Assembly: GCF_057098645.1 (NCBI RefSeq)
Contig: NZ_CM169472.1
Strand: one strand, 5' to 3'
DNA: 64,000 nt
Positions 38,720-38,925 of the stretch are shown here, piece after piece. The notes beneath the pieces were generated by a model that made no database searches, had not been told where the DNA came from, and saw only the letters and a list, made by a program, of their open reading frames with translations. Position numbers and translations under genes: made by a program. Numbering within the stretch: the stretch's first letter is position 1; every line of letters begins with the position of its first letter.

Positions 38720-38748
38720 AAAAAAGGGCCGCTTTCGCGGCCCTTGAG
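38720..38748 (+). terminator. rho-independent-like hairpin after SPFH gene (AAAAAGGGCCGCTTTCGCGGCCCTT)
   Basis: GC hairpin directly after stop codon; same 21-nt hairpin recurs at 38897-38925. Confidence 0.55.
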
Positions 38749-38756
38749 AGTGATGG

Positions 38757-38890
38757 CAAAAGCAAAACTGCCTGATGCGCTACGCTTATCAGGCCTACAT
38801 ACTTCCTGCAATATATTGAATTTGCACGATCTTGTAGGTCGGATAAGGCGTTCACGCCGCATCCGACATGAACAACGCGCACTTTACCAA
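38757..38890. repeat. REP (repetitive extragenic palindromic) elements
   Basis: GCCTGATGCGCTACGCTTATCAGGCCTACA and GTAGGTCGGATAAGGCGTTCACGCCGCATCCGACA motifs. Confidence 0.8.
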
Positions 38891-38896
38891 TAATCT

Positions 38897-38925
38897 AAAG
38901 GGCCGCTTTCGCGGCCCTTCTCACA
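38897..38925 (-). terminator. tktA terminator hairpin (AAGGGCCGCTTTCGCGGCCCTT)
   Basis: hairpin immediately downstream of tktA stop; bidirectional. Confidence 0.6.

Follow-up and report, generated by a model that had tools for sequence, protein, structure and literature searches.

A hairpin repeated on both sides of a BIME-1 element between an SPFH gene and tktA, and its counterparts at other BIME-1 sites

The hairpin pair and the element it encloses

The DNA analysed here is a 64-kb window (the whole stretch of 64,000 nucleotides under study) of contig NZ_CM169472.1 from the NCBI RefSeq assembly GCF_057098645.1. In this window, two convergent genes, one for an SPFH-domain protein and one for transketolase (tktA), are separated by a spacer that carries a bacterial interspersed mosaic element of type 1 (BIME-1) between the two stop codons, with a copy of the same GC-rich hairpin on either side. 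From left to right, the junction comprises the following features.

37822-38720, + strand: body of the SPFH/Band_7 gene (Pfam PF01145, E 5.6e-32; 'prohibitin family protein' in RefSeq)
38718-38724: A7 run, the left flank of hairpin copy 1
38725-38745, both strands: hairpin copy 1, AGGGCCGC-TTTC-GCGGCCCTT, exact match
38746-38898, + strand: full-length BIME-1 (RIB/RIP), 153 bp, in the order y, linker, z1
38899-38919, both strands: hairpin copy 2, exact match, with the ancestral right flank TTCTCACAAA towards the tktA stop codon
38940-40931, - strand: tktA (transketolase, 663 amino acids), convergent with the SPFH gene

The initial annotation, made from the sequence alone, had reported a 21-nt hairpin occurring twice at this place, which is indeed the case, the exact coordinates being 1 nt off its approximate ones. 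The 21-mer, AGGGCCGCTTTCGCGGCCCTT, has exactly two sites on the + strand, with a start-to-start distance of 174 bp and 153 bp enclosed between them. Beyond these two sites, no match with up to 3 mismatches was found on either strand of the window, and none appeared in 100 dinucleotide-preserving shuffles. The run shared by both copies in this strain extends to 23 nt (AAAGGGCCGCTTTCGCGGCCCTT). A longer version of the repeat, 38 nt at 82% identity and overlapping the last SPFH codons, was considered as duplicated coding sequence and rejected, because CTTTACCAATAATCTAA is the right terminus of BIME-1 and is conserved at other loci. The program TRF reported nothing on the window, since only 1.1 repeat units are present.

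The two copies differ in what follows them. Read on the - strand, copy 1 and its A7 run give GGGCCGC-GAAA-GCGGCCC followed by U7, and this is the only reading between 38500 and 39100 that passes a terminator scan (9-bp stem with 7 GC pairs, GAAA loop, T7). Copy 2, which in the tktA sense is followed by UUUAGAUUAUU, the BIME-1 terminus, fails the scan, as do both + strand readings, whose U-tracts are poor. Copy 1 with its U7 is predicted to be the intact ancestral intrinsic terminator of tktA, as in the one-hairpin allele described below. The whole hairpin/BIME-1 region folds far better than shuffled sequences on both strands (z = -7.1 and -6.4).

The enclosed sequence had been described as about 150 bp of repetitive extragenic palindromic (REP) sequence. 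Two inverted REPs do lie within the 153 bp, and as a doublet they can form a long hairpin, but the segment is more than REP sequence, being a complete dispersed-repeat unit with the following parts.

38746-38760, + strand: left terminal inverted repeat, GAGAGTGATGGCAAA; family consensus GAGACTGATGACAAA
38770-38798, + strand: first REP, GCCTGATGCGCTACGCTTATCAGGCCTAC; weak naRNA4 match in Rfam
38791-38833, - strand: match to Rfam ES036/CssrF (RF02751), 53.5 bits against a gathering score of 37.6
38799-38833: linker (L), 35 nt, conserved across copies
38809-38821, - strand: predicted IHF-consensus-like site, ATTCAATATATTG, one mismatch to WATCAANNNNTTR
38834-38867, + strand: second REP, GTAGGTCGGATAAGGCGTTCACGCCGCATCCGAC, inverted relative to the first; naRNA4 match, E 6e-5
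38883-38898, + strand: right terminal inverted repeat, TTTACCAATAATCTAA; consensus TTTGTCAACAATCTGA

The ends of the element were set by a three-way alignment with the copies at fepA-entD and glpD (GAGACTGATGACAAA ... TTTGTCAACAATCTGA), and they form imperfect 15-nt terminal inverted repeats that match at 12 of 15 positions. To our knowledge, no parent insertion sequence (IS) has such ends. The inserted 153 bp begins and ends as the dispersed copies elsewhere do: used as a query, it matches end to end (1-151 or 1-153) with 87-90% identity at other places in 5425 of 5426 complete E. coli genomes, including strains that lack the SPFH gene. Within the window, BIME-1 occurs as a single copy. According to Rfam, naRNA4, a REP RNA, matches both REPs weakly; by position, the REP at 38770-38798 is presumably of type y and that at 38834-38867 of type z1. 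Judged by its sequence, the element matches the published description of BIME-1, which comprises z1 and y REPs and a long L linker that frequently holds an IHF site (PMC3333891). As a side observation, ES036/CssrF, listed as a family of small RNAs, seems to correspond to the central part of the repeat element, that is, to the BIME-1 linker.

Alleles, outgroups and other BIME-1 sites

The SPFH gene is present in 1827 of the 5426 complete E. coli genomes, and 1376 of these 1827 have the junction of SPFH gene, hairpin and element. Three classes of allele were recognized in E. coli.

One hairpin, no element; spacer 45 bp: AH50, STE15, 20AR0192, GPEC1165
Two hairpins, one element; spacer about 206-219 bp: the window, O145:H28 RM12761, ST131, ATCC 25922-like strains
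Three hairpins, two elements; spacer 393 bp: K12a, 118UI, DG342-2

The classes were counted by span sampling; a query for the junction between units was unspecific and joined non-collinear pieces. Among 20 evenly spaced SPFH-positive genomes, 5 had one hairpin, 14 had two and 1 had three, and the class with one hairpin and no element makes up about a quarter of SPFH-carrying E. coli. The spacer of this class has the sequence ...CTAAGTAAAAAAAGGGCCGCTTTCGCGGCCCTTCTCACAAAGC..., and the empty sites, found in the four E. coli strains of the first class and in Pseudocitrobacter, run from the SPFH stop codon through A7, the hairpin and TTCTCACAA to the tktA stop codon, without a REP block. A genome assigned to Escherichia sp. 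has 4 hairpins and 3 elements with a period of 175 bp, and the array-specific substitutions common to its units indicate concerted evolution. The locus is thus a variable number tandem repeat, with 1, 2, 3 or 4 hairpins between strains and a period of 174-175 bp, and the generalization that BIME-1 elements 'occur as single copies' (PMC3333891) does not hold here. Some smaller variants were also noted. The ST131-type element has a 13-bp deletion that removes CTACATACTTCCT at the border of REP-y and linker, and of its hairpins copy 1 lacks one stem G and copy 2 has the loop ATTT. One of 1830 matches to the 3' part of the SPFH gene lies on a record typed as plasmid.

Species-representative genomes, one per outgroup species, were scanned with the SPFH protein. 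In Pseudocitrobacter vendiensis and in a metagenome-assembled genome of Pseudocitrobacter, the SPFH gene and tktA are convergent and separated by one hairpin, with no element. The P. vendiensis hairpin with its flanks, AAAAAAAGGGCCGCTTTCGCGGCCCTTCTCACAA, is identical to that of the E. coli one-hairpin allele; the SPFH genes of the two differ at about 24% of positions, and the identity of the hairpin despite this divergence points to constraint on the terminator. By contrast, the element is present in each of the other Escherichia lineages that were sampled, in the order hairpin-element-hairpin in E. albertii, E. whittamii and a divergent 'E. coli', and as the longer array in the Escherichia sp. 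genome. In these deep lineages the hairpin copies have diverged, with the loop GTTT or TCTC instead of TTTC, and those of E. whittamii show compensatory stem changes. In a tree of SPFH genes, the E. coli alleles with one hairpin fall within the crown. The SPFH genes of two of them, AH50 and 20AR0192, differ from that of the window at 2 of 909 positions; their tktA 3' end differs from that of the window, and they are therefore recombinant around the spacer.

An alignment to the cmtB-tktA region of K-12, which the initial annotation had proposed as a check, was made and decides nothing, because the SPFH gene is absent there and the terminator hairpin is unrelated. Homology between K-12 and the SPFH-type allele extends to 78 bp past cmtB and resumes at the tktA stop codon; the segments between these points, 234 bp in K-12 and 1,251 bp in the SPFH type, have no similarity, and the hairpin of the K-12 segment is GGTCGC-CGAA-GCGACC. 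About two thirds of E. coli genomes, K-12 and O157:H7 included, lack the SPFH gene and have this unrelated 234-bp segment, which brings its own tktA terminator in the form of a UUCG-loop hairpin in the tktA sense. Since Pseudocitrobacter, E. albertii and E. whittamii all have the SPFH gene beside tktA, the K-12 type looks like a derived replacement. Two hairpins without the SPFH gene were not seen among the alleles examined.

A similar arrangement was found at other BIME-1 sites. At yddM/fdnI, AAAATGGCGCCTTTTACAGCGCCATTT lies on both sides of the element and is unrelated to the SPFH/tktA hairpin. Alleles of this locus were found with a synthetic empty-site query and then confirmed by reading the sequences.

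Span of 341 bp; one hairpin, no element: O157:H7 PV15-279, with 100% identical flanks
Span of about 519 bp; two hairpins, one element: HB6 and other O157:H7 strains
Span of about 698 bp; three hairpins, two elements: K-12 strains

At artJ/rlmC, the stem AAGCCGC/GCGGCTT is present on both sides of the element, with diverged loops. Downstream of fbp, the filled allele has a perfect 23-nt repeat and another strain has an empty allele with a single hairpin. The loops at the fbp site are GCAA in the empty allele and TTGC, its reverse complement, in both filled copies, the stems being identical; this loop flip may be unrelated or may be a clue to mechanism. The four annotated sites with a duplication, namely tktA/SPFH, yddM/fdnI, artJ/rlmC and fbp/DUF2569, all lie between convergent genes. 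A fifth duplicated site is presumably metE/ysgA.

For a broader sample, internal-pattern matches in metagenome contigs provided 111 usable records representing 28 distinct sites, 3 of them already known. The 40-nt left and right flanks of each site were compared by local direct alignment, with a score of at least 11 counted as positive and 756 mismatched flank pairs as control. Same-site scores were 27, 23, 23, 16, 16, 16, 15, 14, 12, 12, 11, 11 and 11, the rest being 8 or less, against a mean of 6.2 (sd 1.4) for the mismatched pairs, 1.2% of which reach 11. A direct repeat is thus scored at 13 of 28 sites, or at 10 of 25 (Mann-Whitney p = 1e-5) when the three sites that were not randomly chosen are left aside. 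The flanking repeats at the positive sites measure 17-27 nt and match the local hairpin, with a distance of 0 +/- 2 nt to the element at either end. The 30 nt adjoining the element fold with a mean of -9 kcal/mol, compared with -4 for sequence 45-75 nt away, and a strong hairpin is flush with at least one element end at 22 of the 28 sites.

Further searches added little. An nhmmer search of about 1.1 Mb of loci yielded no new sites, only reverse-strand matches of the same palindromic elements and the K-12 array. A scan of viral contigs hit 2 loci only, of which one is new and has a hairpin just on its right. An empty allele for the one-sided glpD copy was looked for and not found. Two further arrangements were noted. 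At one site (L121), the left flank of the element is GCGGGTTT and the right flank is AAACCCGC; the two are complementary to each other and do not form a direct repeat, so that the element looks as though it were placed in the loop of a single hairpin. On a metagenome contig (L171, 607-791), two pattern matches 147 bp apart form a tandem, BIME-1-like arrangement with the short shared flank AAGGCGTT and no clear hairpin.

Origin of the hairpin pair

The outgroup and the empty-site alleles show that the ancestral junction had one hairpin. Its order would have been SPFH stop codon, A7, one GC-rich hairpin, TTCTCAC and tktA stop codon, with a single palindrome serving both convergent genes. The duplications around BIME-1 derive from the target, have the size of the palindrome and are flush with the element ends, and the hairpin pair at SPFH/tktA behaves as a target-site-like duplication whose length equals that of the palindrome. 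The earlier proposal of a REP block entering the tktA terminator and duplicating its hairpin is consistent with this and draws support from the precise empty sites and from the boundaries shared with dispersed copies. The question which copy is the ancestral one, raised at the same time, receives no answer: copy 1 retains A7 and copy 2 retains TTCTCAC, and one ancestral flank per copy is what is expected of a target duplication.

Taken as a whole, the explanation that we favour, and hold to be probably correct, is an insertion of BIME-1 with duplication of the hairpin followed by changes in copy number. On the SPFH tree, the insertion would have taken place in or before the common ancestor of the sampled Escherichia lineages. 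The most parsimonious history appears to be one old insertion with duplication, later precise losses and independent expansions, with at least one event among the losses spread by recombination. Direct repeats of 21-27 nt around a long palindrome would make the 174-bp module of hairpin and BIME-1 unstable, and slippage or unequal recombination between the hairpin copies may have generated the alleles with 0, 1, 2 and 3 elements. After insertion, the ancestral hairpin-plus-tail of each gene would be intact but would lie beyond the element, tktA retaining copy 1 with U7 and the SPFH gene retaining copy 2 with UUCUCAC. The element would consequently belong to the transcribed 3' untranslated regions (UTRs) of both genes, except where the RNA is ended or trimmed earlier by copy 2 or the REPs.

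How the duplication might arise is a separate matter, on which we offer a tentative proposal: BIME-1 could possibly integrate by recognizing a hairpin by its structure and cutting at the opposite bases of the palindrome. The strands of an extruded or single-stranded hairpin would be cut at opposite bases, with a stagger as long as the palindrome, and joining of the cut ends to the element followed by filling of the gaps would then leave a hairpin on both sides. Since both strands of a palindrome fold alike, a single structure-specific nick in each would suffice to give a hairpin-sized stagger. Support for staggered cleavage comes from the flush, hairpin-length repeats at about 40-45% of the sampled sites, where the hairpins are unrelated.

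Several points weigh against insertion with hairpin duplication. First, RAYT/TnpA-REP proteins, which are IS200/IS605-like and favoured as the agents of REP and BIME mobility, are described as making no target duplication (PMC2817692; PMC3333891); this expectation is at odds with the flush repeats of 17-27 nt at 13 of 28 sites, SPFH/tktA included. Second, at about half of the sites in the sample a flush hairpin is present at only one end of the element or is missing altogether, so that duplication is either not obligatory or often decays. Third, each outgroup species contributes a single genome to the polarity, and recombination occurs at the locus: AH50 combines a window-like SPFH gene with another tktA 3' end. 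Finally, the mechanism is purely inferred.

Four alternatives were weighed against this explanation. In one, BIME-1 would insert flush with a hairpin without duplicating it, and the second hairpin would be acquired later, through recombination between alleles with insertions on opposite sides or a local replication error stimulated by the palindromes. Such a history is compatible with RAYT/IS200-type chemistry, which makes no target duplication, with the roughly 10 sampled sites that have a flush hairpin on one side only, and with a locus that recombines and changes in copy number. However, it would have to take place in two precise steps at 13 separate sites, and it predicts the order element-hairpin-element, which was not seen, the examined arrays all starting and ending with a hairpin. 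In addition, the repeats abut the element on either side and extend as far as the palindrome does, and perfect copies of 23-27 nt at three sites suggest single recent events. We therefore think this two-step history unlikely.

A second alternative, to which we give a similarly small chance, concerns the direction of change: the one-hairpin alleles of E. coli would be a retained ancestral polymorphism, and the element would be younger and still spreading. Their one-hairpin state is indeed identical to that of the outgroup, and recombination could spread either allele. Nevertheless, all sampled deep Escherichia lineages carry the element, the diverged hairpin copies indicate age, and the one-hairpin alleles stand in the crown beside two- and three-hairpin haplotypes. 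At yddM/fdnI, moreover, empty and filled alleles occur within O157:H7 with 100% identical flanks, which indicates that precise loss or gain is fast.

According to a third view, the hairpins would not derive from the target but would be a terminator module borne by the element. Although most copies of the element do have abutting hairpins, the hairpin sequences are unrelated between loci and similar within a locus, empty alleles keep exactly one copy at three loci, and one or both hairpins are missing from the element copies at fepA-entD and cysM-yfeS, which makes this view very improbable. The weakest alternative, part of the initial annotation, is that the SPFH gene and the REP block were inserted together at the tktA terminator; K-12-type genomes do lack both together, but the SPFH gene occurs without a REP block, beside a single hairpin, in Pseudocitrobacter as well as about 25% of SPFH-carrying E. 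coli, and therefore predates the duplication, both hairpins lie downstream of the gene rather than around it, and the K-12 hairpin is unrelated and belongs to a non-homologous replacement segment, so that a joint arrival is hardly credible.

Known systems and neighbouring features

BIME-1/RIB/RIP elements, their IHF site and their location at the 3' ends of transcription units are already known. The window element shares with them the inverted REPs, the conserved long linker, the IHF-like site and the 3'-end position, and over its full length it is 87-90% identical to the copies at fepA-entD and glpD. What sets the locus apart is that other strains have arrays of up to 3 units at SPFH/tktA, with a counterpart at yddM/fdnI (2 in K-12), that are interleaved with a local hairpin foreign to BIME. 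Polymorphism for presence or absence of a whole BIME-1 was reportedly described by Bachellier and colleagues in 1997. We found no statement in the literature searched that BIME-1 is flanked by direct repeats of the whole local terminator hairpin, the key papers of the 1990s being outside the search, so that a prior description is possible. As a BIME-1 the locus is ordinary; it is the configuration that is unusual and informative, and the main value of the locus is the general footprint.

Precise excision of Tn10 and Tn5 occurs between 9-bp target duplications and is stimulated by inverted repeats. In the same way, repeats around a long palindrome would favour a precise loss of BIME-1 that brings back the original site, in agreement with the one-hairpin alleles of the E. 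coli crown and in O157:H7. However, the repeats flanking BIME-1 are 21-27 nt long and themselves palindromic, and expansion to 2-3 units occurs as well. Class C (IIC) group II introns target DNA just downstream of intrinsic terminator hairpins, and in both cases a terminator stem-loop is recognized by structure and not by sequence, if BIME-1 integrates as proposed. These introns, in contrast, are ribozyme/reverse-transcriptase elements and do not duplicate the hairpin.

Among repeats of the REP type, BIME-2 also varies in locus copy number between strains (PMC3333891), but it has y/z2 REPs, short linkers and no interleaved foreign hairpins, whereas the recombining repeat at SPFH/tktA would be the duplicated terminator. 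The REPIN clusters of Pseudomonas fluorescens SBW25 consist of tandem REP doublets 'including the flanking sequences' (Bertels and Rainey 2011, PMC3116915), comparable to the unit of hairpin and BIME-1. They involve another REP family and another host, and the flank is not described as a terminator hairpin or as a bracket around a single element. Miniature inverted-repeat transposable elements are comparable, BIME-1 being non-coding and about 150 bp long, ending in imperfect 15-nt terminal inverted repeats, lying between direct repeats and having both filled and empty alleles; such elements typically have a fixed duplication of 2-10 bp (PMC3184786), whereas that of BIME-1 is 17-27 nt, varies with the site and equals the local palindrome.

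According to a 2026 preprint, the in vivo insertion mechanism of REP/BIME elements "is not fully established". A consistent footprint, made up of flush repeats of whole hairpins and matching empty sites at three loci, would constrain the insertion chemistry, and the tktA/SPFH, yddM/fdnI and fbp terminators provide defined natural targets for insertion and excision assays. If the proposal of hairpin cutting is true, its footprint is not one expected from the 'peel-and-paste' model of IS200/IS605-like elements, and the hairpin-element-hairpin modules would preserve both convergent terminators and provide built-in points for exact loss and for expansion. The REP/IHF modules in the tktA 3' UTR, whose number varies, could tune mRNA stability or termination between strains. 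In practical terms, the 174-bp unit is a copy-number-variable marker in about a third of E. coli.

Several further features of the window deserve mention. The SPFH gene is disrupted after codon 3 by an IS3-family element (IS629/IS1203-like) at 36509-37818, which separates the first 10 nt of the gene (36499-36508) from its body. This element has 41-nt imperfect terminal inverted repeats, and open reading frames with rve/HTH_21 and HTH_Tnp_1 domains on the - strand; it is bracketed by a target duplication of 3 bp (CAC; 36506-36508, 37819-37821). None of the 5426 complete E. coli genomes spans at least 80% of 35600-39100 in one place, and the IS insertion in the SPFH gene therefore appears to be absent from all of them; O145:H28 RM12761 is 100% identical to the window here, the IS excepted. 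Within the SPFH coding region, three tandem 33-nt repeats at 38508-38606 (64-100% identity) encode an A/E-rich repeated segment near the C-terminus. Finally, other REPs lie at 42216-42245, 54270-54299 and 61914-61992 (a REP pair), none with a BIME-1 linker; that at 42216 has the same z1-like sequence as the SPFH/tktA element.

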